Source: Rhynchopus sp. YZ270_cl-10 (lineage: Eukaryota). Taken from it: a stretch of 64,000 bases of DNA. Position 1 is the stretch's first letter, and each line of letters starts with the position of its first letter. Below, in pieces: positions 12,091 through 61,781 of this stretch. The notes under the pieces were generated by a model. The model ran no database searches. It saw only the letters and a program-made list of their open reading frames with translations, and had not been told where the DNA came from. The stretch is taken from contig OZ037843.1 of NCBI GenBank assembly GCA_964035575.1, forward strand, positions 1,240,001 to 1,304,000. The letters are read 5' to 3'. A program made the position numbers and the translations under genes.

Positions 12091-14417
12091 ATGGCATCCC
12101 CTGCAAAGCTTGCGTCGGACCAGAAATGGGACCAGATGAAAGCTGCCATCGCCAACGGCTCAGACCCCAATGAGGTGAACAAACCGGATATGGGCTACAC
12201 CCCCTTGCTGTACGCCTGCTACCACAACGAGAACGACGTGTTTTCGTGGCTCATACAGCACGGCGCCGACGTCAACATTTGCGACAACAACAAGAAGTGC
12301 GCGATGCACATCGCCGCCAAATACGGCTCCCCCGACTGCATCAGAACACTTCTGCTCAACGGCGCCATCACTAAGCAAAAGGACAAATTCAACCGACTCC
12401 CAGTAGACCTCGTCTCCGACCGCCGTGGGGCTGCCAAGACGGTATCTCAAGAGGCGCTGGACGAAGTAAAACAGGTAATCGACACATGGGAAGAGGGGAA
12501 ACTGCCTGCCGCGTTCAACAACGGCACCCTTCAGGACCTTGCAGCCCAAGAAGGGGTGGTGGGGGACGAAGCGGCAGCGTTGCTGAGGGTGATAGGTGGG
12601 GGTGTGTCGAGGAAGAAGGTTCTGCCGAATCCTGCGGTGCATCCTGTGGCGCACGCAGCCAAGCAGGAGTGGGGACATATGAAGAACGCCATCATGGAAG
12701 GAGGCGACCCTAATGAGAAGGAGCTGAGCGACAGCATGCAGTACACACCGCTCATGTACGCGGCCTATCACGATAGCGCCGACAGCTTTGCCTGGCTGGT
12801 CCAGAGCGGCGCCGCCATCTCCTGCTGTGACACCAACCGCAAAAACGCTCTCCACGTTGCTGCAAAGTACGGCTCCCCAAACGTCGTTCGCCTTCTCCTC
12901 ATAGAAGGTGTAGACCCAGACCAAAAGGACAAATTCGGTCGGGTACCTCGCGAATTACTGAAAGACAGACGGGGCACTACAAAAGAAGTGACTGCAGTAC
13001 AATTAAACAAAGTGGACCAGGTGTTCGAACTGTGGCCCCAGGTGAAACCCTTTTGGGAGGCCGGCACCTTAGAGGCTGGGCTGGACAAAGGAGGCGATCT
13101 TGCTGAGGAAGTTGGAGCGTACATTGCATTGCTGAACCCTAAGAGCTCACAGACAGCACAGCCTCCAGCAGGCCCTTCTGCGGCTGCTCCCGCACCTAGC
13201 GCAGAAGCGCCCAAAGGCAGCACAGCCGCCAATGTAGAGGAGGACCTTGGAGAAGGGAGTGATGTGTTCATGAGCTACTGCTGGGCACAGAAGGATGTGG
13301 TCCGCCCCTTGGCTGCGTTGCTGCAGAAGGCAGGGATCAAGGTGTGGCTGGATGTACAGCAGATGAAGTCGGGGGAGTCGCTCTTTGAGGAGATCGACAA
13401 AGGGCTGCGCAACACTGCCCTGATGCTGTCCTGCATCTCCCAGGAGTACTCCCGGTCGGTGAACTGCAGGCGAGAGGTGGTCTTAGCTACCGAACTCAAG
13501 AAGCCCATCCTCCCTCTTATCGTCGACCAATCCCAATTCAAACACTGGCCACCTACCGGGCCAATGGGGCCCCTCCTCTCAGGCAAATTGTACGTCGACC
13601 TGAAACAGCCCCAATGCTTGACTCAGGTCTCAGAAGGAATGCAAAACCAAGCCACCACCCTGGGCACCCGATTGCAACAAGCCCTGCCAAATTGGCCTAC
13701 TACCCCATGGGTGGACGATACCGGGGCAGTTCCTGAGTGTGAGGTGCTGGCGCGACCGGACGACGCTGCAGATATCTTTATTAGCTATTCATGGGCGAAT
13801 AAAGGCATTGTGCGCCCCTTTGCAGCATGGCTCAAACAGCAGGGCCATAGGATATGGCTCGACATCGAACAGATGATGGGTGGCAACTCTCTTTTCGAGA
13901 AAATCGATCTCGGCGTCCGCCATGCCCACGTCGTCATCGCATTCGTCTCGCCAGAGTACGCCATCTCTCTCAACTGCCGCATCTCAACTGCCGCAGAGAG
14001 TTCCAACTAGCAAACGACGTCCGCAAACCAGTAATCCCCGTCAACGTCGGGGACACATGGCCCCCCAGTGGCCCCTTAGGTCCCCTCCTTGCCGGGCAAT
14101 TGTATGTTCCCTGCAGCGGCGAAGGTGGCTTCCAAGATATTCTCGATGCAGTCCTCCCCGCTCTGCCTGAGGCAGTGAAAGGGGGAGGAGGGAAAGGAGG
14201 GACAGTCTCTGCGGGTAGCCCGTCGGAAGGGGGGCCTGCGCCGATGTCAACAGCGGAGTGGCTTGGGCTTGTGGATGTGGTAAAAGGACTCAAAAAGAAG
14301 CTCGATGAGCAAGAGGAGAAGGATCTGATCATGGTCCCAAAGCAGCAGTGGGACGGGTTGAATGCAAAGGTGGCGGAGCTGACGAGCCAAGTGGAGGCAC
14401 TGAAGGGGGCATCGTGA
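12091..14417 (+). CDS. Ankyrin-repeat / tandem TIR (TIR_2-like) / coiled-coil protein, frameshifted by a 14-bp tandem duplication (770 aa if restored)
   Basis: Two ankyrin blocks (GYTPLLYAC..GADVN; YTPLMYAA..NALHVAAKYG) and two TIR domains (DVFMSYCW..VWLDV..SQEYSRSVNCRRE; DIFISYSW..IWLDI..SPEYAISLNCRRE). TCTCAACTGCCGCA is duplicated at 13968-13981 and 13982-13995. Confidence 0.88.
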
Positions 14418-14966: not shown

Positions 14967-15128
14967 ACCAACTACCAACTACCAACTACCAACTACCAAC
15001 TACCAACTACCAACTACCAACTACCAACTACCAACTACCAACTACCAACTACCAACTACCAACTACCAACTACCAACTACCAACTACCAACTACCAACTA
15101 CCAACTACCAACTACCAACTACCAACTA
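14967..15128. repeat. (ACCAACT)n heptamer microsatellite, ~23 units
   Basis: Direct reading of a perfect tandem array. Confidence 0.97.
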
Positions 15129-16567: not shown

Positions 16568-17500
16568 ATGCATTCCCTACCCATAACCCTCTCCTTCATC
16601 CCTCTTCTCCTCGTCTCCTCTTCATCTGCTGATCCCTTGGACAATGCCTGCACCACCTGCACAGATCCTTTCTCTTGCGCAAGCCACAGTAGCGCGTGCC
16701 CGAAGGACACACCGTTCTGTATACGACATGGGAACGACTGTATCTGTAAGGACAATGGTATAGGCACCAGTGGCCACGTTGTGTATCAGTTCGATACGGC
16801 CGCGGCCCCGCTCTGGGATGAGATGCAGTACGGTGTGCGTTGGATTGAAATGCCGCTGAAAGGGTTCAACTGTTATGCATCAACGCAGATGTGGTGGGCT
16901 GGGGCTGGTGGATACATGGGGTCACAGTTTCATTCTGACGGAACGCAGATGATTGACTTTGCAATTTGGGACCACAACTCTACCATAAAAAATTGCCACC
17001 CCATGGGAAACTGCACCCGCTTCGGTGGAGAAGGGGAAGGGGCACATTGCGAGACCGTGCTTCCTCTTTCAGTTAACACATCGTACTCATTTAAGGTGCA
17101 CCAAACGGGAGCAAACGCGACGGGTGTGATGTGGGGCATCACCTTCACCGACGATGCGTCGGGACACACCATTGACGGAGGATCACTCTTTTGGGATGAA
17201 TCGGAGGTGGGTGCAGGCAAGCTGGGCAAACTGCGTGCTGCTGCGCTGTCCTTTCAAGAGTACTACACAGGGGGTGATTTTAACGCTAGTGTGGCGTTTA
17301 CTGCGCCAGTTGGCACGGTGCGTGAAGGAGGGGACGTGAAGCACTACCCCGCGACGTCCGTCTCTTGTGGGGAGAACGATGAGCGCCACAACTGCTCCGC
17401 GTGTGTGCCCGGTGTAGGGTGTGGACCACCCAACGTGCTCCTGCAGGCAGGCGACGCAGTGCCTACACCCACCTCCGACTGGGAGGTGTGGAAGGTGTGA
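16568..17500 (+). CDS. Secreted protein (310 aa) with signal peptide, Cys-rich N-terminal module and DUF3472-like domain
   Basis: Hydrophobic leader (LSFIPLLLVSSSSA) and motifs GGYMGSQ..IDFAIWD..RFGGEGEGAHC..SFQEYY, which resemble the DUF3472 family. Intronless. Confidence 0.75.
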   Translation: MHSLPITLSFIPLLLVSSSSADPLDNACTTCTDPFSCASHSSACPKDTPFCIRHGNDCICKDNGIGTSGHVVYQFDTAAAPLWDEMQYGVRWIEMPLKGFNCYASTQMWWAGAGGYMGSQFHSDGTQMIDFAIWDHNSTIKNCHPMGNCTRFGGEGEGAHCETVLPLSVNTSYSFKVHQTGANATGVMWGITFTDDASGHTIDGGSLFWDESEVGAGKLGKLRAAALSFQEYYTGGDFNASVAFTAPVGTVREGGDVKHYPATSVSCGENDERHNCSACVPGVGCGPPNVLLQAGDAVPTPTSDWEVWKV

Positions 17501-18377: not shown

Positions 18378-18905
18378 TTTTCAACTTACCTTCCTTCACC
18401 CCCCCCTGTAAGGGCAACCGTAGGTGAAGTAAGGTATAGTATTGAAATCGATGTGGGGGGGGAGTAAAGGGTCAATTTTACAAAACCAGATTTTGAGGAA
18501 AATTTTAGCCGAAAATGGGCCCCACGTATAAGCAACCGGGCTCATATTTCTCAAAATTTAAGTGGTCAAAAAATTGTCCAATTTTCGAGATTGACCCCAC
18601 CACTGCACGGGCGGAGCCCAAAAATGCAAATAAGGACCCTTTTTCAACTTACCTTCCTTCACCCCCCCCTGTAAGGGCAACCGTAGGTGAAGTAAGGTAT
18701 AGTATTGAAATCGATGTGGGGGGGGAGTAAAGGGTCAATTTTACAAAACCAGATTTTGAGGAAAATTTTAGCCGAAAATGGGCCCCACGTATAAGCAACC
18801 GGGCTCATATTTCTCAAAATTTAAGTGGTCAAAAAATTGTCCAATTTTCGAGATTGACCCCACCACTGCACGGGCGGAGCCCAAAAATGCAAATAAGGAC
18901 CCTTT
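18378..18905. repeat. Exact-looking tandem duplication, 263-bp period
   Basis: TTTTCAACTTACCTTCCTTCACCCCCCCTGTAAGGGC...AATAAGGACCCTTTTT at 18378 and again at 18641. A related sequence lies inverted at ~43770-43960. Confidence 0.9.
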
Positions 18906-19011
18906 TTAATTTGTTCTCTTGAAATGTATAATTTCATGTTTTCGCGAAAAAATAACGACTGATCCCACAAGGGTTGAAGGAAGGTGGTTGAAAACAACAA
19001 TAACAACAAGG

Positions 19012-19449
19012 ACAAGTAATTGCTAAGAAAAAAACGGGGTGTGCTGTGGAAAACCCCGCGCGATTTTCGAAACCACCGTAGCATCCTGGCGATTTGCTGG
19101 AGGTGCTGATGTGCCTGGTGTGATCGATGTGTTGTAGTCTGTGCATTCTGTGCTTCTTCCGCACTCCAACGACGACGACAATGTGGGGAGCCTGTGGACA
19201 AAAACGAGCTGGAACACGCCGAGCCTACCGAGCCGACGTCCAACAACGCTATCGAGCAGATGGTGCTGGACGGAGAGGACAGCGCCCCTTCTTGAACGTT
19301 TCAGATGCTGGCGTCCCAGTGGATCTGGCAGCGTACGAAGAGCGTTAACATACCTGCAGAAGAGCAGAATGCTGGACGTGCTGTAGATTATTTCTACAGG
19401 ATGGAGTTCCACATCACACCCCGTTTTTTTTCCGATAGCAATTACTTGT
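19012..19449 (+). mobile_element. TIR-bounded element with a degenerate coding-like interior; inverted paralog at ~43116-43577, fragment at ~37850-38070
   Basis: TIRs ACAAGTAATTGCTA..GAAAAAAACGGGGTGTGCTGTGGAA / TTCCACAtCACACCCCGTTTTTTTTCCGATAGCAATTACTTGT. The interior reads TSNNAIEQMVLD..DAG.P..EER..IPAEEQNAG in both copies. Confidence 0.7.
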
Positions 19450-19719
19450 TTTTTGTATTTTTCAATTTTTTGGCAAGAATTGTACGCCCCGTTACTGCTT
19501 TTGAGAGCTTCTGGACAGCACCCCAGATCGGAATTATTGGTGAAACTCCACGATTCCCCACTGGCAACCAGTCGCTACTTTTTAGTTTAAGAAAGCCACC
19601 CCATTGTCCCATGCCCTGTTCCCCGATATAAAAAAGCAAAATATATGCACAGCCAAACGGCTGTGTCCAACGTTGTTGCATGTTCCCCAAGATCCTCGCA
19701 GATCGCCACACCCTATTCG

Positions 19720-19802
19720 TTGCCTTGTCTTGCATCCTGTCTGTCACACCACACCACACACACATCCAGACACTCTCTTCCCTTTCTGTACACCTCAGAA
19801 CA
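19720..19802 (+). promoter_or_regulatory. Conserved polypyrimidine tract + AG (putative trans-splice/3' acceptor) 4 nt before the ATG of every receptor cyclase gene (also ~23005-23039, 33496-33530, 38096-38130, 59130-59164)
   Basis: Identical CCAGACACTCTCTTCCCTTTCTGTACACCTCAG|AACAATG in all five paralogs. Confidence 0.6.
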
Positions 19803-22800
19803 ATGGTGTCATGCGGGATCCAGTCGCTGACAGTGCTGCTGTGTGTGGTGCTGATTCTGTCGACAGGTGCGATCATCGGTGGCTTCACTCTGTCAACATG
19901 GGACGACCTTCTGGAGAAGGCACGTGACACAGGTGACGAGGGCTTCGGGATGTGTCTCGACAGTGGTACGGCGGACATCGAAACGGTCTCGGCACGCTAC
20001 CTGCGATCTGTCCTTGGCAACGTGGACGCGGCAGTGAAGGAGTACCTGAAGATGCCTGAGCAGCTGATGATGTCTGTTGTCAACCTGGCACAGGCACACC
20101 ACCCAGACGTCAGCACGAGCCCTGCCTTTATCAAGAATATTGTGCGCCGTGCACTAATATCCTCTTTCAAGGCTGGTGCTGACGCTGGGCTTGCCTTCCT
20201 CGAATACGAAGCGTACCCGTGGAGTCCGGCACATCCTGTTCCGTGGAAAATGTCGGACGGGTACGCAGGGTGGGGCGCGCGGTCCAGGATAAGCCCATTG
20301 ACTACATTGGGAGGCATCCTGCCGACGAACGGCACGAAGGTTATCACGTTAATGGAACTGCTAGACCCGGTGACGCTGCAGCCAGGGCAATCGGACATGA
20401 TGGCCTATTCCGAAGTGAATGACGTGGGAGACTGGAAGTACCCCTCAGAGCCGTGCAACTTCCCAGACTACAGCAAAGGCGAGGTAAAGGGAATGTGCTT
20501 CTATCCCGCAGCTACACTCGAGCCCCCGGGTTCCGAAACCTATCTCGCCCATCAACGCGGGCTCCACAACTTGGGTGCTGACGACCCACCCCTAAACCCT
20601 GTACATACGTTTGCCTACGCACCCGCGGTAGCACGTTGGTCAAGCATGTATTGGGATATTAGCTACACCTTCACCCACCCAGATATGTACACGATGTACC
20701 CCAAGCAGGGCAAGCGTGTGGGTACTGTCACGTCCTCCGCGACTACACAGGGGATATCCGACGTGGTGCGTGCACAGCTGCTCCCGGCCGGCACGTCGCT
20801 GTACCTGGTGGAGGACTCCTCAGGATCAGTGGGGACAGTTGTCGCGTACAACAGAGGACGGGAGCTGAGGATGGTACGAGAAATGAGCGCGATTGGCATC
20901 GTGTTAAACCTTGCATACAGCATCAACATAACGAACCACTCGATGGAAGACGCAACATCGCACATCCCCTCAGTGATTGCAGAGCACGGGCAGTTTGCGT
21001 TCAGACTCCCGCGGAACTACAGAGACCTTGTGGAGATGACAAAGGCCTCCTTCCTGAAGTGGTCTGACTCGAACGGCACAGAGTTCTGGACAATCACGTC
21101 GACAATTGAACGTGGAACGATCTTCTGGTATTCAACCCTTCTTGTGCCTCGGACGTCTGTGATGGATACGATTGATGCGTCGACGAATGCAATCCGTGCG
21201 AAGGTGGCATCAGATCTGTCCTCTGCAGACGCACAGAAGGAGGATGCGGTGACTGTGATGGCGATTGTGACGGCTGTTGCGGTGATAGGACTTCTTGCCA
21301 TTGCTGTTGTGTTCACACGCTACATCACGTCACCTCTACTGAAGCTTGGGAGAGAGATGGCAAATGTGGCTGTGATGGACCTGGAGGCTGTGGACACGGG
21401 CCGTGCAGTGTCGCAGCTGAGTGAAGTGGGGATGATGCAGCGCAGCTTTGTTACCATGGTGGCGAACCTGCAGAAGTACAAGAAGTTCCTCCCTGGTGCG
21501 CTCTTTGAGGAGAAGGAGCAGGACATTGTGCGGAACTCACGACCACCACCTGGCATCACGAGCGGGACAGCCACGTTGGTGTTCACAGACATCCGTTCCT
21601 CGACTTCGATCTGGGAGGCTGTGCCTCAGGGTATGTGTGAAGCACTGAAGATCCACAACAGAATCATCCGAGAAGCGATGGATGAGTTTGAAGGCTACGA
21701 AGTGAAGACAATCGGGGACGCGTTTATGGTTGCATTTGCGACGGTGCTTGACGGTGTGAACTTCGGGTTGCGTGTGCACGAGGCTCTCCGCAATGCAACG
21801 TGGCCTGCAGAGTTGCTGCATTTCAAACTCTGTGCCGACACAGGACCACTCTGGGGTGGGCTGACTGTGCGCATTGGTGTGAACGCCGGCCCTGTGACTG
21901 TGGAGAAGAACACACTTACGGGGCGGACAGACTACTTCGGACACACTGTGAACGTGGCCTCTCGCCTTGAGAGCACGTGCCAGCCAGGTGCTGTTGGACT
22001 GCGTCATGAGGTGTGGCAGGAGGAGTGTTCTGGGGTGTGCAGTGCTGCTGTGGGTGAGGTGAACAGGATTGAGCTGAAGGGTGTGTCTGGGAAGACACCC
22101 GTGTGCTGTGTGTGGCCTCCCTCGCTTGCTGGGCGTGTGACGAACCCGCTGACAGAGCGACGCCTGTCTGCCGGCTCCTCCTCGGTCCACACTACTGCAT
22201 CTTCTGTGGTGTCACACACCTCAATCAAGACCATGAGCTCCACGTCCACGATGTCTTTACCGGGAAGTGTGTCGACGTCTGGGCGTCTGGCAACGGTCGG
22301 TATTGTGCAGGTAGCTGTCGGGGACGAAGCCCACGTTTCAGCAATGCGCACAATGTCAACACACTTGATAACGTTGAAGTCGTGTCTCGACCGCAGTGGT
22401 GGGCGTATGGTGTCAGTCATCGGCAGTTTTGTGTGCATCGCGTGGAACCTGTCACACGCGGCCCCAGCACACGTTGAGAACTCACTGCGCTTTGTGCAGT
22501 ATCTGCACGGCACGTCTTCGGTACGTGTTGGTGGCCTTGTGACCGGCACAGTGCACCATGGCGACGTGAGTGCGAAGACGTTGCGCTTCGTGACTGTGTT
22601 GGGAGACGCTGTGCAGAAGTGCTGGTGTCTGTGCATAGAGGCGAAGAAGGAGGAGGTGTTCTTCCTGTACGAGCCACCTGTGGACACAGTACTGCCGCAG
22701 AACCTTGAGCGTGCGCTGTCACCACATAGGACTGGTGTGTATGTGGTGAAGCAGAAGCGGGACACGTCGCAGTTGGATCCAGTTGTGGACAACTATATGC

Positions 22801-22805
22801 TGTGA
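19803..22805 (+). CDS. Receptor-type adenylate cyclase (1000 aa): TM - ectodomain - TM - HAMP-like linker - intact class III cyclase - degenerate second cyclase domain
   Basis: Catalytic motifs TLVFTDIRSST, YEVKTIGDAFMVAF, VRIGVNAG and RTDYFGHTVNVASRLE supply both metal Asp, the ATP-specifying Lys/Asp and the Asn/Arg pair. Two hydrophobic TM spans. Confidence 0.93.
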   Translation: MVSCGIQSLTVLLCVVLILSTGAIIGGFTLSTWDDLLEKARDTGDEGFGMCLDSGTADIETVSARYLRSVLGNVDAAVKEYLKMPEQLMMSVVNLAQAHHPDVSTSPAFIKNIVRRALISSFKAGADAGLAFLEYEAYPWSPAHPVPWKMSDGYAGWGARSRISPLTTLGGILPTNGTKVITLMELLDPVTLQPGQSDMMAYSEVNDVGDWKYPSEPCNFPDYSKGEVKGMCFYPAATLEPPGSETYLAHQRGLHNLGADDPPLNPVHTFAYAPAVARWSSMYWDISYTFTHPDMYTMYPKQGKRVGTVTSSATTQGISDVVRAQLLPAGTSLYLVEDSSGSVGTVVAYNRGRELRMVREMSAIGIVLNLAYSINITNHSMEDATSHIPSVIAEHGQFAFRLPRNYRDLVEMTKASFLKWSDSNGTEFWTITSTIERGTIFWYSTLLVPRTSVMDTIDASTNAIRAKVASDLSSADAQKEDAVTVMAIVTAVAVIGLLAIAVVFTRYITSPLLKLGREMANVAVMDLEAVDTGRAVSQLSEVGMMQRSFVTMVANLQKYKKFLPGALFEEKEQDIVRNSRPPPGITSGTATLVFTDIRSSTSIWEAVPQGMCEALKIHNRIIREAMDEFEGYEVKTIGDAFMVAFATVLDGVNFGLRVHEALRNATWPAELLHFKLCADTGPLWGGLTVRIGVNAGPVTVEKNTLTGRTDYFGHTVNVASRLESTCQPGAVGLRHEVWQEECSGVCSAAVGEVNRIELKGVSGKTPVCCVWPPSLAGRVTNPLTERRLSAGSSSVHTTASSVVSHTSIKTMSSTSTMSLPGSVSTSGRLATVGIVQVAVGDEAHVSAMRTMSTHLITLKSCLDRSGGRMVSVIGSFVCIAWNLSHAAPAHVENSLRFVQYLHGTSSVRVGGLVTGTVHHGDVSAKTLRFVTVLGDAVQKCWCLCIEAKKEEVFFLYEPPVDTVLPQNLERALSPHRTGVYVVKQKRDTSQLDPVVDNYML

Positions 22806-23039: not shown

Positions 23040-25661
23040 ATGGTGTCATGCGGGATCCAGTCGCTGACAATACTGCTGTGTGTGGTGCTGATTCTGTCGA
23101 CAGGTGCGATCATCGGTGGCTTCACTCTGTCAACATGGGACGACCTTCTGGAGAAGGCACGTGACACAGGTGACGAGGGCTTCGGGATGTGTCTCGACAG
23201 TGGTACGGCGGACATCGAAACGGTTTCGGCACGCTACTTGCACTCTGTCCTCGTCAACGTGGACACGGCAGTGAAGGAGTACCTGAGGGTGCCTGAGCAG
23301 CTCGTGATGTCGCTCGCCACCCTGGCGAGGGCACGCCACCCCAACGTGAGCACGAGCCCTGCCTTTGGGGCGACAACAATACGTCCTGCGAGCATGGCTG
23401 CTCATGTGGCTGGGATGGCGTATGGTATGCTCAAGATCGGGCACGAAGCGTACCCGTGGTGTGCGGCACATCCTGTTCCGTGGAAGAGGGGTGACGGGTT
23501 TGCAGGGTGGGGCTCACGCACCTCACACAGGACACTGAACTCTGCGACTGGTGTCCTTCCTACTAATGGCACGAAGGTTCTCCTAGTGTATGAGTCGCGT
23601 GACCACGTGACGCTGGCAGAGGGACTTTCCGACTACGCTGTCATAGGAGAAGCCAACGAGGTGGGCGACATCAAGTATCCCCATCAGCCGTGCAACTACC
23701 GACCTGACTACAACAAAGGCGAGTTGCGTGGACTGTGCGTGTTGCCCATGAAGCACGCCGAGCCCGTAGGGAACCCGATCATAGCCCAACGCGGCAGAGA
23801 GCTCTACTTCCTGGGTGCCGATGATCCACCACTCAACCCTGTGGACACGCTTGTCTACGCACCTATGCAGGTCGCATGGGACTACACGTCCTGGGAGCTG
23901 AGCTATACCTACACCCACCCAGATATGTACACGATGTACCCCAAGCAGGGCAAGCGTGTGGGTTCCGTGAGTGCCACCGTGACTACAGACGGAGTGACCG
24001 ACGTGGTGCGTGCACAACTGCTCCCGACCGGCACGTCGCTGTACCTTGTGGATTACGAACGTGTATCTGGTTCAGTGGGGACAGTTGTTGCGTACAACAG
24101 AGGACGGCAGTTGTCGAAGGTGTTGGTACTTAATACCAATAACGGCGAATGGATGGACCAGGCATCGAGCATCAACATAACGAACCACTCGATGGAAGAC
24201 GCGACGTCGCACATCCCCTCAGTGATTGCAGAGCACGGGCGGTTTGTGTTCACACACCCGCGGAACTACAGAGACCTTGTGGAGAAGACAGAGGACTCCT
24301 TCCTGAAGTGGTCTGACTCGAACGGCACGGAGTTCTGGACAATCACGTCGACAATTGAACACAGAACGATCTTCTGGTATTCAACCCTTCTTGTGCCGAG
24401 GACGTCTGTGATGGACTCGATTGATGCGTCGACGAATGCAATCCGTGCGAAGGTGGCATCAGATCTGTCCTCTGCAGACGCACAGAAGGAGGATGCGGTG
24501 ACTGTGATGGTGGTTGTGACGGCTGTTGCGGTCATTGCGGCTCTTGCCGTTGCTGTTGTGTTCACACGTTACATCACGTCACCTCTGCTGAAGCTTGGGA
24601 GAGAGATGGCAAGTGTGGCTGTGATGGACCTGGAGGCTGTGGACACGGGCCGTGCAGTGTCGCAGCTGAGTGAAGTGGGGATGATGCAGCGCAGCTTTGT
24701 TACCATGGTGGCGAACCTGGTGGAGTACCGGAACTACATGCCGCAGAGTGTGCTTGTCAACGACACTGATGCCGAAGAAGCACTCTCAGACCGTACAGGG
24801 GCAGAGTCGGTGGTGTCCTCTTGCCATTCAGCCTCAGGGCCGCAGGAGCAAAGCTCTTCTCTTGACCAGAAGCAGAACCAAAAGGCACTGCGTGTGGAAG
24901 GGATGAAGAAGAAGAGGGTATCACTGGCACACATGAACGTCGTGTCGTGGCACGCCTTCTGTACAGAACATAATGACGCAGAGGTGCTCTCCGCACACGC
25001 AGGTGTGATTGAGAATATCCTGGCAGCAGTGCAGCACAACAAGGGCATGTGCGACACGTTTGCTGGCGACAAGATACTTGCCACCTTCAACGCCTTTGTT
25101 CCGAAGCCGTCACACAGTGTTTCCTGTGTGAAGGCTGCACACGAAGCAGCAAAAGCACTTGGTGATGTGCACACGATCTCGTATGGGTGCACGACAGGCG
25201 AGGCACGTGTCGGGAACATGGGTTGCAACGGGATGAAGAAGGTGTCGATTCTTTCGCAGTCCATGTCGTGGGTGGTTGTACTTGAGCGTTGGAACAGAAT
25301 GAACGCACTTCCTGGTGTTGTTGACCAGAACTCGGCGCGGGAGATGGAGGGACAGGTGGTCCTCCGTTGTGAAGGAGCTGTACTGTACGAGAAGTTCAGT
25401 GAGAAGGCGCAGACTGTGTTTGCTGTGAAGGGTCTGTGCAGCACGAAAGACGAGGAGTGGATGTACCAGCTGGAGTCCCTCGCACAAAGCAACCCTCATG
25501 CACTGTGGAATGAAGCTTTTGCACACATCATCGCACAGGAGTTTGGTCAAGCTGCTGTTGCGCTTGACAGCATCGGCACCGAGCAACGAGAGCACTACGA
25601 GACGCTAGCGAGATACGCCAATGCGAAGGCTTATGACCCTTTCGTTGTGTGTATGTACTAG
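23040..25661 (+). CDS. Receptor with degenerate (pseudo) class III cyclase domain, paralog 2 (873 aa)
   Basis: Same N-terminal and TM architecture as 19803-22805. The cytoplasmic domain VSLAHMNVVSW..CDTFAGDKILATFNA..GCTTGEARVGNMG..SILSQSMSWVVVLE keeps cyclase fold motifs but lacks the first Asp, the Lys and the Asn/Arg. Confidence 0.9.
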   Translation: MVSCGIQSLTILLCVVLILSTGAIIGGFTLSTWDDLLEKARDTGDEGFGMCLDSGTADIETVSARYLHSVLVNVDTAVKEYLRVPEQLVMSLATLARARHPNVSTSPAFGATTIRPASMAAHVAGMAYGMLKIGHEAYPWCAAHPVPWKRGDGFAGWGSRTSHRTLNSATGVLPTNGTKVLLVYESRDHVTLAEGLSDYAVIGEANEVGDIKYPHQPCNYRPDYNKGELRGLCVLPMKHAEPVGNPIIAQRGRELYFLGADDPPLNPVDTLVYAPMQVAWDYTSWELSYTYTHPDMYTMYPKQGKRVGSVSATVTTDGVTDVVRAQLLPTGTSLYLVDYERVSGSVGTVVAYNRGRQLSKVLVLNTNNGEWMDQASSINITNHSMEDATSHIPSVIAEHGRFVFTHPRNYRDLVEKTEDSFLKWSDSNGTEFWTITSTIEHRTIFWYSTLLVPRTSVMDSIDASTNAIRAKVASDLSSADAQKEDAVTVMVVVTAVAVIAALAVAVVFTRYITSPLLKLGREMASVAVMDLEAVDTGRAVSQLSEVGMMQRSFVTMVANLVEYRNYMPQSVLVNDTDAEEALSDRTGAESVVSSCHSASGPQEQSSSLDQKQNQKALRVEGMKKKRVSLAHMNVVSWHAFCTEHNDAEVLSAHAGVIENILAAVQHNKGMCDTFAGDKILATFNAFVPKPSHSVSCVKAAHEAAKALGDVHTISYGCTTGEARVGNMGCNGMKKVSILSQSMSWVVVLERWNRMNALPGVVDQNSAREMEGQVVLRCEGAVLYEKFSEKAQTVFAVKGLCSTKDEEWMYQLESLAQSNPHALWNEAFAHIIAQEFGQAAVALDSIGTEQREHYETLARYANAKAYDPFVVCMY

Positions 25662-30400: not shown

Positions 30401-30726
30401 TTCCGGTAAAATAGAAGAAAATTGTCTTCTAAAAATAGAATTCTGTGGGGGTTAGGTGAGAGGTGGGCGGAGCCCCCACTCCTCACCTAACCCCACCCCA
30501 GCCTCAATCCAAAACCCAAATTACCACGTATGGACACGTACGGATTCCACCTTTTCAAAACAATTCACGTATGGATTTCCATACGTTCCACACGTGGAAC
30601 GTAATCCCTGTCACCAGAGTCACTCAACGAACCCTTTTTTGCGGAGCAAAAAATGAAAAAATGGCGCCGCAGGCAAAAAAATTTAAGATACAGGATGCAA
30701 CCCAGTTCCCCAGGTGCATATCCTGG

Positions 30727-31215
30727 AAGGAAATTTATTGCCTGAGGCAAATTTATTTCCTGAGGGAAATTTATTTCCTGGGGAAATTTATTTCCTGGGG
30801 CAAATTTCTTTCCTGGGGGAAATTTATTTCCTGAGGGAAATTTATTGCCTGAGGGAAATTTATTTCCTGGGGCAAATTTATTTCCCGAGGCAAATTTAGT
30901 GCCTGAGGGAAATTTATTTCCCGAGGCAAATTTATTTCCCGAGGGGAAATTTATTTCCTGGGGCAAATTTATTGCCCGAGGCAAATATATTTCCTGGGGA
31001 AAATTTATTTCCCGAGGGAAATTTATTGCCTGAGGGAAATTTATTTCCTGGGGCAAATTTATTGCCCGAGGCAAATTTATTTACTGAGGGAAATTTATTT
31101 CCTGGGGCAAATTATTTCCCGAGGGGAAATTTATTTCCTGAGGCAAATTTAGTGCCTGAGGGAAATTTATTTCCTGGGGGGAAATTATTTTCCTGGGGGG
31201 AAAATTTTTTCCCTG
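30727..31215. repeat. 18-19-bp minisatellite (GAGGGAAATTTATTTCCT variants), ~26 units
   Basis: Direct reading. Each unit is quasi-palindromic (GGAAAT..ATTTCC). Confidence 0.93.
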
Positions 31216-33530: not shown

Positions 33531-36155
33531 ATGGTGTCATGCGGGATCCAGTCGCTGACAATACTGCTGTGTGTGGTGCTGATTCTGTCGACAGGTGCGA
33601 TCATCGGTGGCTTCACTCTGTCAACATGGGACGACCTTCTGGAGAAGGCACGTGACACAGGTGATGAGGGCTTCGGGATGTGTCTCGACAGTGGTACGGC
33701 GGACATCGAAACGGTCTCGGCACGCTACCTGCGATCTGTCCTTGGCAACGTGGACGCGGCAGTGAAGGAGTACCTGAAGGTGCCTGAGCAGCTCGTCGTC
33801 TCGCTCGCTACTCTAGCAGAGGCGTACCACCCAAACATCAGCACGAACCCCGCCTTTGCGCTTCAAACGATGCGTCCTGCGAGCATGTCTGCTTTTAAGG
33901 CTGGGTTGGCGTCTGGGGTGCTCATGATCGGTCACGAAGCGTACCCGTGGTGTGCGGCACATCCTGTTCCGTGGAAGAGGGGTGACGGGTTTGCTGGGTG
34001 GGGCTCACGCACCTCACACAGGACAGTCAATTCTGCGAGTGGTGTCCTGCCTAAGAATGGCACCAAGGTTCTCATGCTCTATGAGACACGTGACCACGTG
34101 ACGCTGGCAGATGGACTTTCCGACTACACTATCTACACAGAAATCAACCGGATGGGCGGCATCAGAGACCCTTCACAGCCGTGCAACTATCATCCTGACT
34201 ACAACAAGAACGAGGTGCGTGGGCTCTGCATATTCAACGTCGCTAACTCCGAACCCGTAGGCGACCCAATCATTGCCCAACGTGGGAGACAGATGTGGTT
34301 CCTGGGTGCCGATGATCCACCACTCAACCCTGTGGACACTCTTGTCTACTCACGCATGCAGACTACATGGGACTACATGTCCTGGGAGCTGAGCTACACC
34401 TACACCCACCCAGATATGTACACGATGTACCCCAAGCAGGGCAAGCGTGTGGGTGCTGCAGTTGCCACCGTGACTGCAGACGGAGTGACCGACGTGGTGC
34501 GTGCACAGCTGCTCCCGACCGGCACGTCGCTGTACCTGGTGGAGGACGATCGTGCATCTGGATCAGTGGGGATAGTTGTCGCGTACAACAGAGGAAGGCA
34601 GGTGACGAAGGTGGCAACACCCACCTGGACTGGCTCAGTGGTGGACATCGCATCCAGCATCAACATAACGAACCACTCGATGGAAGACGCAACGTCGCAC
34701 ATCCCCTCAGTGATTGCAGAGCACGGGCGGTTTGTGTTCACACACCCGCGGAACTACAGAGACCTTGTGGAGAAGACAGAGGACTCCTTCCTGAAGTGGT
34801 CTGACTCGAACGGCACGGAGTTCTGGACAATCACGTCGACAATTGAACACAGAACGATCTTCTGGTATTCAACCCTTCTTGTGCCTCGGACGTCTGTGAT
34901 GGATACGATTGATGCGTCGACGAATGCAATCCGTGCGAAGGTGGCATCAGATCTGTCCTCTGCAGACGCACAGAAGGAGGATGCGGTGACTGTGATGGCG
35001 ATTGTGACGGCTGTTGCGGTGATAGGACTTCTTGCCATTGCTGTTGTGTTCACACGCTACATCACGTCACCTCTGCTGAAGCTTGGGAGAGAGATGGCAA
35101 GTGTGGCTGTGATGGACCTGGAGGCTGTGGACACGGGCCGTGCAGTGTCGCAGCTGAGTGAAGTGGGGATGATGCAGCGCAGCTTTGTTACCATGGTGGC
35201 GAACCTGGTGGAGTACCGGAACTACATGCCGCAGAGTGTGCTTGTCAACGAGAGTGAGGGACCACAAGAAGAGTCATCACGATCATGTGGCACGATGTCG
35301 CAGTCGGGCATGTCCAGGCATTCACGTGTGACTGCGAAAACTAACGCCACTTCTGCTGCTACGTTGCAGAACCAGAAGGCACTGCTGCGTGTGGACGGGA
35401 TGAAGAAGAAGAAGGTGTCGCTGGCACACATGAACGTCGTGTCGTGGCACGCCTTCTGCAAGAAGCACAAGGACGCAGAGGTGCTCTCCGCACACGCAGG
35501 TGTGATTGAGAGGATCCTGACAGCAGTGCAGCACAACAAGGGTGTGTGCGACACGTTTGCTGGCGACAAGATGCTTGCCACCTTCAACGCCTTTGTTCCG
35601 AAGTCGTCACACAGTGTTTCCTGTGTGAAGGCTGCACACGAAGCTGCAAAAGCACTTGGTGATGTGCACACGATCTCGTATGGGTGCACGACAGGCGAGG
35701 CACGTGTCGGGAACATGGGTTGCAACGGGATGAAGAAGGTGTCGATTCTTTCGCAGTCCATGTCGTGGGTTGTTGTGCTTGAGCGTTGGAACAAGAAGTT
35801 CAACCTGCCTGGTGTCATTGACCGCAACTTGTCACGTGAGGCAGAGGGACAGGTGGTGCTCCAGTGTGCAGGTGCTGTGCTGTACGAGAAGTTCAGTGAG
35901 AAGGTGCAGACTGTGTTTGCTGTGAAGGGTCTGTGCAGCAGCGAAAACGAGGAGTGGATGTACCAGCTGGAGTCTGCCTCAAACAACCCGCACGCACTGT
36001 GGAACGAGGTCTTCGAGCACATCATCAAACAGGACTTTGAGAAGGCGTCTTCTCTGCTGGACTACGTCGCTCAGGACCAACGCACACTTTACGAAGAGCT
36101 TATGGGCTATGTGGAGGCGAAGGCTTATGCCGCCCACGTTGCTGATCTACACTGA
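33531..36155 (+). CDS. Receptor with pseudo-cyclase domain, paralog 3 (874 aa)
   Basis: Intact ORF from the conserved ATG, with the same architecture and motifs as 23040-25661. Confidence 0.9.
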   Translation: MVSCGIQSLTILLCVVLILSTGAIIGGFTLSTWDDLLEKARDTGDEGFGMCLDSGTADIETVSARYLRSVLGNVDAAVKEYLKVPEQLVVSLATLAEAYHPNISTNPAFALQTMRPASMSAFKAGLASGVLMIGHEAYPWCAAHPVPWKRGDGFAGWGSRTSHRTVNSASGVLPKNGTKVLMLYETRDHVTLADGLSDYTIYTEINRMGGIRDPSQPCNYHPDYNKNEVRGLCIFNVANSEPVGDPIIAQRGRQMWFLGADDPPLNPVDTLVYSRMQTTWDYMSWELSYTYTHPDMYTMYPKQGKRVGAAVATVTADGVTDVVRAQLLPTGTSLYLVEDDRASGSVGIVVAYNRGRQVTKVATPTWTGSVVDIASSINITNHSMEDATSHIPSVIAEHGRFVFTHPRNYRDLVEKTEDSFLKWSDSNGTEFWTITSTIEHRTIFWYSTLLVPRTSVMDTIDASTNAIRAKVASDLSSADAQKEDAVTVMAIVTAVAVIGLLAIAVVFTRYITSPLLKLGREMASVAVMDLEAVDTGRAVSQLSEVGMMQRSFVTMVANLVEYRNYMPQSVLVNESEGPQEESSRSCGTMSQSGMSRHSRVTAKTNATSAATLQNQKALLRVDGMKKKKVSLAHMNVVSWHAFCKKHKDAEVLSAHAGVIERILTAVQHNKGVCDTFAGDKMLATFNAFVPKSSHSVSCVKAAHEAAKALGDVHTISYGCTTGEARVGNMGCNGMKKVSILSQSMSWVVVLERWNKKFNLPGVIDRNLSREAEGQVVLQCAGAVLYEKFSEKVQTVFAVKGLCSSENEEWMYQLESASNNPHALWNEVFEHIIKQDFEKASSLLDYVAQDQRTLYEELMGYVEAKAYAAHVADLH

Positions 36156-38130: not shown

Positions 38131-40737
38131 ATGGTGTCATGCGGGATCCAGTCGCTGACAATACTGCTGTGTGTGGTGCTGATTCTGTCGACAGGTGCGA
38201 TCATCGGTGGCTTCACTCTGTCAACATGGGACGACCTTCTGGAGAAGGCACGTGACACAGGTGACGAGGGCTTCGGGATGTGTCTCGACAGTGGTACGGC
38301 GGACATCGAAACGGTCTCGGCACGCTACCTGAGATCTGTTCTTGGCAACGTGGACACGGCAGTGAAGGAGTACCTGAGGGTTCCTGAGCAGCTCACGGTC
38401 TCGCTTGCCACCCTTGCACAGGCACACCACCCAAACGTCACCACGAGCCCTGCCTTTGCAGCTTCCCATTTGCGTCCTGCAGTCATGTCTGCTTTTGTGG
38501 CTGGGAAGGCGTCTGGGCTTGTACGGTTCGGGCACGAAGCGTACCCGTGGTGTGCGACACATCCTGTTCCGTGGAAGAGGGGTGACGGGTTTGCAGGGTG
38601 GGGCTCGAGGGTGTCGTACATGAATGATGTGAACGATCACGTACCGACGAATGGCACCAACCCCATCATGCTGTATTCTACACGTGACCCCTTTACGCTG
38701 GCAGAGGGACTTTCCGACTATGCTGTCTTCACAGAAATCAACAACCGGGGTGACATCAGAGACCCCTCACAGCCGTGTAACCTGCAACGTGACCTCGAAA
38801 AAAACGAGTTGGCTGGACTGTGCATATACCCCGTCATGCTTGTCGAACCCGTGGGCGACCCAATCATTGCCCAACGTGGGAGACAGATGTGGTTCCTGGG
38901 TGCCGATGATCCACCACTCAACCCTGTGGACACGCTTGTGTACTCAATCATGCAGGTGCGTCGGGACTACATGGCGTGGGAGCTCACCTACACGTACACC
39001 CACCCAGATATGTACACGATGTACCCCAAGCAGGGCAAGCGTGTGGGCTCAGTGGTTGCCACCGTGACTGCGAAAGGAGTGTCTGACGTGGTGCGTGCAC
39101 AGCTGCTCCCGAAGGACACGTCGTTGTACCTGGTGGAGGACGATCGTGCATCTGGTTCAGTGGGGACAGTTGTTGCGTACAACAGAGGACGGCACCTGAC
39201 GCACGTGAGAACCCTGCAAGACGTGAGCACCTACATCGACCTTGCACACAGCATCAACATAACGAACCACTCGATGGAAGACGCAACGTCGCACATCCCC
39301 TCAGTGATTGCAGAGCACGGGCGGTTTGTGTTCACACACCCGCGGAACTACAGAGACCTTGTGGAGAAGACAGAGGACTCCTTCCTGAAGTGGTCTGACT
39401 CGAACGGCACAGAGTTCTGGACAATCACGTCGACAATTGAACACAGAACGATCCTGTGGTATTCAACCCTTCTTGTGCCTCGGACGTCTGTGATGGATAC
39501 GATTGATGCGTCGACGAATGCAATCCGTGCGAAGGTGGCATCAGATCTGTCCTCTGCAGACGCACAGAAGGAGGATGCGGTGACTGTGATGGCGATTGTG
39601 ACGGCTGTTGCGGTGATAGGACTTCTTGCCATTGCTGTTGTGTTCACACGCTACATCACGTCACCTCTGCTGAAGCTTGGGAGTGAGATGGCAAGTGTGG
39701 CTGTGATGGACCTGGAGGCTGTGGACACGGGCCGTGCAGTGTCGCAGCTGAGTGAAGTGGGGATGATGCAGCGCAGCTTTGTTACCATGGTGGCGAACCT
39801 GGTGGAGTACCGGAACTACATGCCGCAGAGTGTGCTTGTCAACGACAGCGACAAAGAGGACGTGTCCGAGACGGATTCTACACAGGACATGAAGTCGCTG
39901 TCAGGCTTGTCTAATTCACGTGCGTCACCGAGTTCAGTTGTTACGATGCAGAACCAGAAGGCACTGCTGCGTGTGGAAGGGATGAAGAAGAAGAAGGTGT
40001 CGCTGGCACACATGAACGTCGTGTCGTGGCACGCCTTCTGCAAGAAGCACAAGGACGCAGAGGTGCTCTCCGCACACGCAGGTGTGATTGAGAGGATCCT
40101 GACAGCAGTGCAGCACAACAAGGGTGTGTGCGACACGTTTACTGGGGACAAGATGCTTGCCACCTTCAACGCCTTTGTTCCGAAGTCGTCACACAGTGTT
40201 TCCTGTGTGAAGGCTGCACACGAAGCAGCAACAGCACTTGGTGATGTGCACACGATCTCGTATGGGTGCACGACAGGCGAGGCACGTGTCGGGAACATGG
40301 GTTGCAACGGGATGAAGAAGGTGTCGATTCTTTCGCAGTCCATGTCGTGGGTGGTTGTGCTTGAGCGTTGGAACAAGAAGGAGAAGCTGCACGGTGTCAT
40401 TGACCGCAACTTGTCACGTGAGGCAGAGGGACAGGTGGTGCTCCAGTGTGCAGGTGCTGTGCTGTACGAGAAGTTCAGTGAGAACGCACAGACTGTGTTT
40501 GCTGTGAAGGGTCTGTGCAGCAGCGAAAACGAGGAGTGGATGTACCAGCTGGAGTCTGCATCAAACAACCCGCACGCACTGTGGAACGAGGTCTTCGAGC
40601 ACATCATCAAACAGGACTTTGAGAAGGCGTCTTCTCTGCTGGACAGCGTCGCTCAGGACCAACGCACACCTTACGAAGAGCTTGTGGGCTATGTGCGGGA
40701 GAAGGCTTATGCACCGTACGTTGCACGTTTGCACTGA
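38131..40737 (+). CDS. Receptor with pseudo-cyclase domain, paralog 4 (868 aa)
   Basis: Intact ORF with the same architecture and motifs. Confidence 0.9.
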   Translation: MVSCGIQSLTILLCVVLILSTGAIIGGFTLSTWDDLLEKARDTGDEGFGMCLDSGTADIETVSARYLRSVLGNVDTAVKEYLRVPEQLTVSLATLAQAHHPNVTTSPAFAASHLRPAVMSAFVAGKASGLVRFGHEAYPWCATHPVPWKRGDGFAGWGSRVSYMNDVNDHVPTNGTNPIMLYSTRDPFTLAEGLSDYAVFTEINNRGDIRDPSQPCNLQRDLEKNELAGLCIYPVMLVEPVGDPIIAQRGRQMWFLGADDPPLNPVDTLVYSIMQVRRDYMAWELTYTYTHPDMYTMYPKQGKRVGSVVATVTAKGVSDVVRAQLLPKDTSLYLVEDDRASGSVGTVVAYNRGRHLTHVRTLQDVSTYIDLAHSINITNHSMEDATSHIPSVIAEHGRFVFTHPRNYRDLVEKTEDSFLKWSDSNGTEFWTITSTIEHRTILWYSTLLVPRTSVMDTIDASTNAIRAKVASDLSSADAQKEDAVTVMAIVTAVAVIGLLAIAVVFTRYITSPLLKLGSEMASVAVMDLEAVDTGRAVSQLSEVGMMQRSFVTMVANLVEYRNYMPQSVLVNDSDKEDVSETDSTQDMKSLSGLSNSRASPSSVVTMQNQKALLRVEGMKKKKVSLAHMNVVSWHAFCKKHKDAEVLSAHAGVIERILTAVQHNKGVCDTFTGDKMLATFNAFVPKSSHSVSCVKAAHEAATALGDVHTISYGCTTGEARVGNMGCNGMKKVSILSQSMSWVVVLERWNKKEKLHGVIDRNLSREAEGQVVLQCAGAVLYEKFSENAQTVFAVKGLCSSENEEWMYQLESASNNPHALWNEVFEHIIKQDFEKASSLLDSVAQDQRTPYEELVGYVREKAYAPYVARLH

Positions 40738-53536: not shown

Positions 53537-53568
<32 letters not shown>

Positions 53569-59164: not shown

Positions 59165-61781
59165 ATGGTGTCATGCGGAATCCAGTCGCTGACAATGCTG
59201 CTGTGTGTGGTGCTGATTCTGTCGACAGGTGCGATCATCGGTGGCTTCACTCTGTCAACATGGGACGACCTTCTGGAGAAGGCACGTGACACAGGTGATG
59301 AGGGCTTCGGGATGTGTCTCGACAGTGGTACGGCGGACTTCGAAACGGTCTCGGCACGCTACCTGCGCTCTGTCCTTGGCAACGTGGACACGGCAGTGAA
59401 GGAGTACCTGAAGGTTCCTGAGCAGCTCGTGGTCTCGCTTGCCACCCTGGCACAGGCACACCACCCAAATGTGAGCACGAGCCCTGCCTTTGCAGCTTCC
59501 CATTTGCGTCCTGCAGTCATGTCTGCCTTTATGGCTGGGAAGGAGTCTGGAATTCTACGGTTCGGGCACGAAGCGTACCCGTGGTGTGCGGCACATCCTG
59601 TTCCGTGGAAGAGGGGTGACGGGTTTGCAGGGTGGGGCTCGCGGATGTCGTACATGAATGATGCGGGTGCTCACATGACGACTAATGTCACCAGCCCTAT
59701 CTTGCTGTATTCTACACGTGACCTCCTGACGCTGTCAGGGACTTTCCGACTATGTTGTCTTCACAGAAATCGACAAGCTCGGCGACATCAGAGACCCCTC
59801 ACAGCCGTGCAAGTACAATCCTGCCTACAACAAAGGCGAGATGCGTGGACTGTGCATATTCCCCATCCTGATTATCGAACCCCCGAACTTCGCAACCGTT
59901 GCCCAACGTGGGAGACAGATGTGGTACCTGGGTGCCGACGATCCACCACTGAACCCTGTGGACACTCTTGTTTATTCCAGCATGCAGGTGCAGTGGGACT
60001 ACACGGCGTGGGAGCTGAGCTACACCTACACCCACCCAGATATGTACACGATGCACCCCAAGCAGGGCAAACGTGTGGGTTCAGTAGTTGCCACCGTGAC
60101 TGCGAAAGGGGTGTCTGACGTGGTGCGTTCACAGCTGCTCCCGACCGGCACGTCGTTGTACCTGGTGGATGACGACCGTGCATCTGGTTCAGTGGGGACA
60201 CTTGTTGCGTACAACAGAGGACGGCACGTGACGCTCGCGAGAACCCAAAAGACCATCTACATCGAATTTGCGTCGAGCATCAACATAACGAACCACTCGA
60301 TGGAAGACGCGACGTCGCACATCCCCTCAGTGATTGCAGAGCACGGGCGGTTTGCGTTCACACACTCGCGGAACTACAGAGACCTTGTGGAGAAGACAGA
60401 GGACTCCTTCCTGAAGTGGTCTGACTCGAACGGCACGGAGTTCTGGACAATCACGTCGACAATTGAACACAGAACGATCTTCTGGTATTCAACCCTTCTT
60501 GTGCCGAGGACGTCTGTGATGGATACGATTGATGCGTCGACGAATGCAATCCGTGCGAAGGTGGCATCAGATCTGTCCTCTGCAGACGCACAGAAGGAGG
60601 ATGCGGTGACTGTGATGGCGATTGTGACGGCTGTTGCGGTGATAGGACTTCTTGCCATTGCTGTTGTGTTCACACGCTACATCACGTCACCTCTGCTGAA
60701 GCTTGGGAGAGAGATGGCAAGTGTGGCTGTGATGGACCTGGAGGCTGTGGACACGGGCCGTGCAGTGTCGCAGCTGAGTGAGGTGGGGATGATGCAGCGC
60801 AGCTTTGTTACCATGGTGGCGAACCTGGTGGAGTACCGGAACTACATGCCGCAGAGTGTGCTTGTCAACGAGAGTGAGGAGGAGGAAGAACCCACAGAAT
60901 CAGCTGAGTCCACGCAGAAGTCCAAAACAAAGGGTAGGTCTGGTGACTCATCCCGTTCGGAGTTGTCGAAGGCGCACAGCTCAGAGGTGGTGCAGAACCA
61001 GAAGGCACTGCTGCGTGTGGACGGGATGAAGAAGAAGAAGGTGTCGCTGGCACACATGAACGTCGTGTCGTGGCACGCCTTCATCAAGAAGCACAAGGAC
61101 GCAGAGGTGCTCTCCGCACACGCAGGTGTGATTGAGAGGATCCTGACAGCAGTGCAGCACAACAAGGGTGTGTGCGACACGTTTGCTGGGGACAAGATGC
61201 TTGCCACCTTCAACGCCTTTGTTCCGAAGTCGTCGCACAGTGTTTCCTGTGTGAAGGCTGCACACGAAGCAGCAACAGCACTTGGTGATGTGCACAAGAT
61301 CTCGTATGGGTGCACGACAGGCGAGGCACGTGTCGGGAACATGGGTTGCAACGGGATGAAGAAGGTGTCGATTCTCTCGCAGTCCATGTCGTGGGTGGTT
61401 GTGCTTGAGCGTTGGAACAAGAAGGAGAAGCTGCACGGTGTCATTGACCGCAACGTGTCACGTGAGGCAGAGGGACAGGTGGTGCTCCGTTGTGCAGGTG
61501 CTGTGCTGTTCGAGAAGTTCAGTGAGAAGGTGCAGACTGTGTTTGCTGTGAAGGGTCTGTGCAGCAGCGAAAACGAGGAGTGGATGTACCAGCTGGAGTC
61601 TGCCTCAAACAACCCGCACGCACTGTGGAACGAGGTCTTCGAGCACATCATCAAACAGGACTTTGAGAAGGCGTCTTCTCTGCTGGACAGCGTCGCTCAG
61701 GACCAACGCACACCTTACGAAGAGCTTGTGGGCTATGTGCGGCAGAAGGCTTATGCACCGTTCGTTGTGAAAATGCACTAA
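59165..61781 (+). pseudogene. Receptor with pseudo-cyclase domain, paralog 5, frameshifted by a 2-bp deletion near 59737
   Basis: ACGCTGTCAGGGACTTTCC here versus ACGCTGGCAGAGGGACTTTCC in paralogs 2 and 4. Otherwise collinear and open. Confidence 0.85.

Follow-up and report, generated by a model that had tools for sequence, protein, structure and literature searches.

A predicted dCache-type chemoreceptor family in Rhynchopus with a near-identical framework and a divergent membrane-distal module

The 64,000-nucleotide stretch of Rhynchopus sp. YZ270_cl-10 that was analysed here (contig OZ037843.1, positions 1,240,001 to 1,304,000 of the forward strand; the window) is of eukaryotic style and carries five paralogous genes for receptors with two putative transmembrane (TM) segments, R1 to R5, all on the + strand and starting at the ATG codons at 19803, 23040, 33531, 38131, and 59165 (Table 1). 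These genes belong to a family that is probably a repertoire of small-molecule chemoreceptors with a predicted dCache domain on the outside, whose members differ mainly in the membrane-distal module of this domain, the rest probably being kept uniform by gene conversion. The DNA-level analyses rest on the five gene sequences, whereas the protein-level comparisons include the wider family.

The codon alignment of R1–R5, taken up to the MVANL motif, is divided into a framework of 266 codons (M1 to VKEYL and SINITNHS to MVANL) and a block of 291 codons between its two parts. The pairwise DNA identity is 0.952-0.990 in the framework and 0.654-0.868 in the block, which bears out the statement of a first-pass annotation of this DNA that near-identical blocks stand beside radically different segments. 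Its picture of discrete variable segments within an identical frame does not hold, the block being diverged throughout with only short identical islands inside (THPDM..RVG and HEAYPW..GWG). The motifs that it quoted, including the five strings following YNRGR, are present as written, apart from one letter (R5 reads TMHPK, not TMYPK). The proportions of synonymous (pS) and nonsynonymous (pN) differences are 0.049 (0.030-0.071) and 0.019 in the framework, compared with 0.335 (0.297-0.374) and 0.229 in the variable block, and the corrected synonymous distance (dS) is 0.05 in the framework and 0.44 in the block, about a ninefold difference. When only those codons are considered that specify the same amino acid throughout R1–R5, synonymous differences are seen at 17 of 228 framework codons and at 47 of 112 block codons (Fisher p 1e-13). 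For LGADD..DTLVY, a conserved peptide within the block, pS is 0.64-0.79 between R1 and the other receptors; the DNA identity of the framework is therefore not explained by protein conservation alone.

A homolog search with R4 gives 71 matches, 65 of these at 49-100% identity, from which 57 near-full-length close members (P0001-55, 57, and 65) were used for the comparisons, 7 fragments and 7 distant proteins being dropped. Further homolog searches added 6 and 4 matches, and with the ectodomain as query, a full HMMER scan yielded 64 representatives. The family thus has dozens of close paralogs beyond R1–R5. Seventeen family proteins were looked up, and since all 6 named ones come from four named diplonemid species (Rhynchopus euleeides, R. 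humris, Flectonema neradi, and Lacrimia lanifica), the receptor family is considered to be diplonemid. One relative of 2000 aa (P0126) has Patched/sterol-sensing domains joined to an ectodomain-like stretch, which may reflect a fusion or erroneous gene calling.

Within 56 paralogs, the TM1-stalk region is 94% identical and the helix-TM2-HAMP region 92% identical, and both are 43-49% identical to six distant relatives. This indicates that the framework is homogenised and not merely constrained. The distal module is 55% identical within the family and 23-31% identical to the same distant relatives. The framework distance is 0.056 within the window's contig and 0.115 to other contigs, the corresponding distances of the variable part being 0.41 and 0.44, and membership of the window's contig, mapped as a label, switches 4 times along the framework tree, 11 times along the variable tree, and 19 times when shuffled. 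Between residues 89 and 440, R1 groups with an off-contig paralog (P0045) at 98 of 115 informative sites, and outside this region it groups with its neighbour R3 at 9 of 9 informative sites. The variable-domain tree is rejected by the framework data (delta lnL 370), although two of its clades are not (see below). It is likely, judging from these sequence patterns, that regional gene conversion homogenises the framework of the receptor family. This agrees with the earlier proposal, which is supported by the dS values, by the identities within and beyond the family, and by the site grouping of R1.

The ectodomain of R4 (residues 31-486) was modelled from a 67-row alignment, with a pLDDT of 85 and a pTM of 0.81. 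In the predicted structure, a long N-terminal helix is followed by two tandem PAS-like alpha/beta modules, as in the dCache layout. In a Foldseek search with this model, every one of the 38 matches listed is a Cache-type sensor domain, belonging to a chemoreceptor or a kinase, and the best has an E of 2e-7. The VIA comparison with PctD gives a Z of 19.6 and an rmsd of 3.5 for 278 aligned residues (Z 18.7, rmsd 3.6, and 275 aligned in the wide search), and TlpQ, TlpA, and Tlp3 match at Z 17 (Tlp3 at Z 17.0). The Atlas look-alikes of the model carry dCache_1 and MCP-like_PDC_1. Two hydrophobic stretches, placed by eye, flank the ectodomain, and a HAMP match of 15.7-18.1 bits, below the cut-off of 25, is present in all five receptors (in R1 with an E of 0.0035, under the cut-off); it reaches 24.8 bits in one wider relative. 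On the basis of the R4 model, the ectodomain of R1–R5 is predicted to be a dCache-type sensor, and the predicted fold supports the previous description of the ectodomain as Cache-like and chemoreceptor-like; the variable sites are in the membrane-distal module.

The site entropy was computed from the 53 paralogs outside the window, and the limits of the distal module are those suggested by the modelled secondary structure and the dCache topology. The distal module has 70 sites above 2 bits among its 216 positions, a β-hairpin of the proximal module has 15 among 19, and everything else as far as HAMP has 7 among 292; counted by part, there is 1 such site among 67 in the stalk, 3 among 101 in the rest of the proximal module, and none in two further parts (0/34 and 0/73). 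Along the last strand of the distal module, variable and constant residues alternate (S307 2.1, V308 0.8, V309 2.9, A310 1.0, and T311 2.9 bits). T311 aligns by eye with Asp173 of PctA, described as a ligand residue (D173; PMC8915833); residue 311 is Thr in 23 of the 57 proteins, and Asp is not among the six commonest residues there. When the register of the dCache_1AA motif (Y-x4-R-x-W...Y...D) is set by eye, the conserved R249 (53 of 57) may match its R126. The eight presumed pocket positions occur in 54 different combinations in the 57 proteins. Read from the predicted fold, the variable distal-module sites would be those that contact the ligand.

Several observations weigh against this interpretation. 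Of the 57 proteins, 26 are encoded on a contig of the same length as the window's, and for the other 31 (ENA proteins) an origin in the same genome is assumed. Pfam gives no match for the ectodomain of R1 or R4 (the dCache_1 cut-off, PF02743, is 45 bits), and dCache_1 is seen only weakly in 2 of 6 distant relatives (E 0.18-0.21, 11.5-11.8 bits) and not at all, at E 0.05, in 42 further relatives. Aligning the family profile to two dCache proteins encoded on a plasmid of the bacterium Rhizobium gave no result. The pocket was mapped by eye only, with an uncertainty of one residue on the Y144/D146 strand, and by topology the hairpin, which varies most, is outside the canonical pocket. The GC content at third codon positions (GC3) is flat (0.674 in the framework and 0.660 in the variable block), unlike in converted protocadherin regions. 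The block codons that fit omega = 1 (about 55%) also fit relaxed constraint, selection against conversion being inferred. In the approximately unbiased (AU) test, the framework data do not reject trees in which R1 is kept with its variable-domain relatives (p 0.72), nor do they reject a second variable-domain clade (p 0.13).

In the favoured interpretation of a chemoreceptor repertoire, conversion tracts would spread freely through the interchangeable parts, which are the leader, TM1, the stalk, the proximal module, TM2, and HAMP. In the distal module, conversion would be blocked, first by selection for distinct pockets and subsequently by the divergence itself, and this module would thereby retain the old divergence of the paralogs. 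A model of conversion that sweeps some regions while diverse regions stay shielded is reviewed in PMC3966226. Binding of a ligand in the distal pocket would be transmitted by TM2 and HAMP to the cyclase-fold tail.

The catalytic roles of the residues of the class III cyclase motifs are well established. The tail of R1 matches PF00211 (E 5e-27, 95 bits), and the two metal-binding Asp residues, the substrate Lys/Asp, and the transition-state Asn and Arg are all present; as judged from this complete residue set, R1 alone among R1–R5 appears to have an intact adenylate cyclase. The tail of R4 is modelled as a class III cyclase fold (E 2e-12). Catalytic residues are lacking in the tails of R2–R5 and of 70 of the 71 homologs matched by the R4 search, R1 being the only exception with a cyclase Pfam match. 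In the R4-type tails, the first metal-binding Asp is replaced by Asn and the second is kept (each in 70 of 70 proteins), and the transition-state Asn and Arg are replaced by Ser/Pro and Val/Ala/Cys. Most tails are predicted to be catalytically dead. These tails have invariant residues of their own (N629, W633, C667, F670, G672, D673, W740, E745, and R746, in 70 of 70), which suggests that residues 629-746 of R4 (about 40015-40368 in the window) are constrained for some function, and a C-terminal EW[ML]Y motif is present in most wider relatives of this tail.

The R1 sequence is like that of the other receptors up to the end of HAMP, where it switches to a working-type cyclase. The possibility that R1 is a one-off chimaera is weakened, as a full cyclase that passes the cut-off is likewise present in 2 of the 42 wider relatives, and 1 more scores weakly. 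The junction at 21470 is not bridged among the listed contigs of the public-run assemblies. In runs X1 and X2, the contigs over the R1 cyclase (21476-21700) are about 8 times deeper than those over the unique sensor pieces of R1, where contig depth is not the same as copy number and the public runs may include the source sample of the assembly. One contig over this cyclase continues into a different upstream sequence. The R1-type cyclase module may be present on other receptors too.

The predicted-dead cyclase tails raise the question how such receptors signal. As most tails are predicted to be dead, it is conceivable that they form pairs with the rare active chains, R1 among them, and thereby tune the cAMP output; this is the most speculative step of the proposal and a guess that is somewhat more likely wrong than right. 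Trypanosome cyclases are reported to be activated by dimerisation (PMC10734937). A further and doubtful extension is a common-chain chemosensory system, in which dozens of dead-tail dCache receptors pair via their identical frameworks with few active chains like R1; if this were true, conversion would keep the partners compatible, and the identity of the ligand would be read out as cAMP.

The alternative that survives best, although it is rather unlikely, is antibody-like diversification, in which positive selection on contact residues and active shuffling of segments between paralogs would generate new specificities. Among the 15 tree topologies tested, the best for the block is ((R2,R3),(R4,R5),R1). 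Of the mosaic sharing described in the first-pass annotation, the examples shared by R2/R3 and by R4/R5 fit this tree, and therefore only the sharing of EPVG.PIIAQRGR by R2, R3, and R4 is discordant. An 80-nt tract of R3 is identical to R4 (Table 1) and is in favour of exchange, but its triplet test (p 0.007) is not significant after correction for 30, and none of the 30 triplets of R1–R5 DNA passes this correction. The adjacency test in the block gives a p of 0.03, and of 0.12 with one site per codon. At the protein level, the correlation between the two contiguous halves of the distal module (rho 0.39) is lower than in any of the 200 random splits (0.49-0.72), and 8 of the 57 proteins exceed the null of the chimaera scan; 7 of these 8 breakpoints, however, are at residues 103-123, near the framework edge. 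The conflict between half-domain trees (delta lnL 149 and 118) is like that of random halves (148, 101, 102, and 98), and the tree tests between halves are thus uninformative, as random halves are rejected as strongly. It seems that the distal module is mostly passed on whole, with an internal tract now and then and modest internal shuffling; antibody-like shuffling of the variable segments is weakly supported.

The evidence for positive selection is similarly divided. Codon models give an omega of 0.60 for the block (dN/dS 0.60-0.62) and 0.33 for the framework. At the most variable sites, dN/dS is 1.15-1.22. For 217 codons, the likelihood ratio test (LRT) statistics of the plain site models are 12.2 for M1a/M2a (p 0.002), 16.6 for M7/M8, and 11.2 for M8a/M8, with 8% of the codons at an omega of 4.7. 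This signal does not persist under three controls. When the gap zones and the hairpin are left out, the values are 3.3, 6.2, and 3.0, respectively, and with block-wise rates M1a/M2a falls to 4.4 and 3.7. Among simulations without selection, none of 25 attains 12.2 under even rates; once patchy rates and some shuffled trees are introduced, 6 of 25 and 17 of 25 do so. As the M1a/M2a signal is lost under the controls and is reached by neutral simulations, positive selection is neither shown nor excluded.

It is also proposed, with less probability, that the variation is directed against enemies, the receptors binding viruses or proteins of predators or hosts, or serving self/non-self recognition, with the variable sites forming an exposed surface instead of a small-molecule pocket. 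The high variability of the protruding hairpin fits this idea, as does the length of the ectodomain, which exceeds that of the matched bacterial domains by about 150-200 residues, and the predicted-dead tails would be as in decoy or adhesion receptors. Against it, the variation follows the strands of the distal sheet and alternates on the last one, the proximal module and the stalk are near-constant though they are expected to have exposed faces, and the nearest structures are small-molecule sensors.

About equally improbable is neutral concerted evolution, in which a less constrained distal module would have drifted past the identity needed for conversion, many copies being redundant or decaying. 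The dN/dS of 0.6, the large fraction of codons at omega = 1, the frameshift in R5, and the unproven positive selection are all compatible with this. The R5 frameshift follows 59734, where no indel is seen in the four public runs listed, but none of the contigs listed bridges this site. On the other hand, purifying selection acts on about 42% of the codons in the block (omega 0.14), open frames are kept in 3 of the 4 genes R2–R5 and in about 56 near-full-length homologs, just 18 of 1596 distal-module pairs reach 80% identity, and the architecture recurs in the four named diplonemid species.

Near-identical repeats are prone to polishing errors, and the R5 frameshift may be such an error. In the independent assemblies of public runs, the six listed pieces of the R1 5'/variable region are matched letter for letter by contigs (depth 86-171 in run X1). 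A framework contig of 83 nt reaches a depth of 11,157 in X4, compared with 37-246 for the other ectodomain pieces listed, and an 82-nt framework contig has a depth of 7,692 in X1, compared with about 110; some framework contigs are 50-100 times deeper than the exactly matching variable contigs. Contig depth is not a copy number here either, and the runs may include the source sample, but with such shallow, exact variable contigs beside very deep framework contigs, it is most improbable that polishing made the framework identical. That a mutator like a diversity-generating retroelement (DGR) hits the block is equally improbable. The mutator was rejected, as the block is tree-like and has no base bias (AG 72, CT 67, CG 50, AC 46, GT 41, and AT 38), and none of the nine window proteins scanned with Pfam belongs to a reverse-transcriptase family, which also counts against a DGR.

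Trypanosomatid receptor cyclases have one TM segment, an active cyclase, and a Venus-flytrap ectodomain. R1–R5 differ from these in having two TM segments, a predicted dCache fold, and a HAMP-like region, and 4 of the 5 tails are without catalytic residues. Both families are euglenozoan, tandem, and expanded, with conversion between paralogs (likely in the case of R1–R5) and with ligands that are not known (PMC7719234, PMC7400496, PMC10734937); for Leishmania receptor cyclases, gene conversion is reported (PMC7400496). In the part of the survey of trypanosomatid and Bodo cyclases that was available (PMC7719234), diplonemids and Cache are not mentioned.

The paralogous dCache receptors Tlp2, Tlp3, and Tlp4 of Campylobacter jejuni similarly combine identical signalling domains with divergent sensors, their dCache domains being about 30% identical (PMC9769880). 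These are three genes with an MCP output in which the whole dCache domain is diverged, whereas the R1–R5 family has dozens of genes, in a eukaryote, with a cyclase-fold output, and here the identical part extends to the stalk and the proximal module. With the bacterial dCache_1 sensors (PctA/PctD, TlpQ, and the dCache-bearing adenylate/guanylate cyclases; PMC8915833), R1–R5 share the predicted fold, apparently the TM-dCache-TM-HAMP-output order, and a presumed distal specificity site; the differences are the identity of 7-14%, large insertions, the lack of a Pfam call, an amino-acid motif that is not evident, and a mostly degenerate output. The eukaryotic proteins alpha2delta and CACHD1 have the dCache fold, reported also for Euglenozoa, with VWA insertions or nested dCache domains (PMC8915833), and they match the R4 model far worse (Z 8.3 and 7.9) than the bacterial sensors do. 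In clustered protocadherins, gene conversion acts regionally and keeps some ectodomains alike even at synonymous sites, and the specificity domains stay diverse (PMC1852091, PMC3966226); these, unlike R1–R5, are adhesion proteins with variable exons and a GC3 that is raised in the converted regions. The evolutionary pattern is thus already known from protocadherins and from Campylobacter Tlp2/3/4, which limits the surprise. No paper on the receptor family was found in the literature searched, although supplements of diplonemid genome papers may list it as an expanded orthogroup.

To our knowledge, the mechanism of chemical sensing in diplonemids is unknown. For the trypanosomatid receptor cyclases, no ligand is known (PMC10734937). 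The R1–R5 family makes diplonemid sensing testable, as it is routine to express dCache domains by themselves and to screen them for ligands. Annotation misses this family because Pfam does not see the ectodomain. The family would also illustrate clearly how conversion can halt at a structural module within a single exon.

Table 1 Coordinates of the receptor genes and their parts in the window
Feature	Position	Strand	Description
R1	19803..22805	+	1000 aa; TM1, predicted dCache-fold ectodomain, TM2, HAMP-like region, apparently intact class III adenylate cyclase, further C-terminal domain
R1 TM1	about 19833-19892	+	hydrophobic stretch placed by eye
R1 stalk helix alpha1, likely homogenised framework	19893..20093	+	model helix H15-67; mean entropy 0.32; 1/67 sites >2 bits
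R1 membrane-distal dCache module (predicted), variable unit	20094..20744	+	R4 residues 98-313; 70/216 sites >2 bits in 53 other paralogs
R1 hypervariable β-hairpin after YNRGR, in proximal module	20865..20921	+	model strands E326-333 and E337-344; 15/19 sites >2 bits; pooled dN 0.83, dS 0.77
R1 proximal module, C-terminal helix, TM2, and HAMP-like region to MVANL, likely homogenised	20919..21470	+	pS 0.047, pN 0.020 over 10 pairs
R1 adenylate cyclase domain	21564..22082	+	FTDI, KTIGD, and DYFGHTVNVASRLE motifs
R2	23040..25661	+	873 aa; receptor of R1 layout, cyclase-fold tail without catalytic residues
R3	33531..36155	+	874 aa; cyclase-fold tail without catalytic residues
R4	38131..40737	+	868 aa; ectodomain and tail both modelled
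R5	59165..61781	+	frameshifted, 2-nt deletion after 59734; pseudogene or assembly error
Candidate conversion tract in R3	34260..34339	+	80 nt within the variable block, identical to R4 38854-38933; run of 42 consecutive polymorphic sites (permutation p 0.0005)
Shared stretch upstream of the ATG, likely trans-splice acceptor	19745..19802	+	about 55 nt before ATG common to all five genes; pyrimidine tract, AG 5 nt before ATG

The pyrimidine tract and the AG upstream of the R1–R5 start codons are likely to be a trans-splice acceptor, as expected from euglenozoan biology. Upstream of R1, on the + strand, the window encodes a protein with BspA-type leucine-rich repeats fused to a ubiquitin-like domain (10429-11691), an ankyrin-repeat protein with two TIR_2 stretches (12091-14010; E 6e-41), which is a protist TIR protein 6 kb upstream of R1, and a DUF3472 protein with a signal-peptide-like start (16568-17500; E 4e-13). 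Also on the + strand are a 1640-aa Cys- and Ser-rich protein with internal repeats, a C-terminal hydrophobic stretch, and no Pfam match (44344-49266), and a broken HSP70 copy with stops and frameshifts (53350-54500; Pfam E 5e-27), which is followed near 54870-55150 by apparent broken MORN-like repeats, seen by eye. A 263-nt exact tandem duplication is present upstream of R1 (18380-18905), and parts of 18491-19461 recur inverted at 43104-43912, possibly as a mobile element. Two long inverted repeats, with arms of 244 nt (100%) and 536 nt (99%), occur at 5240-7712, and tandem arrays with units of 7, 18, 10, and 8 nt are found at 14967-15128, 30708-31750, and 62643-62814.

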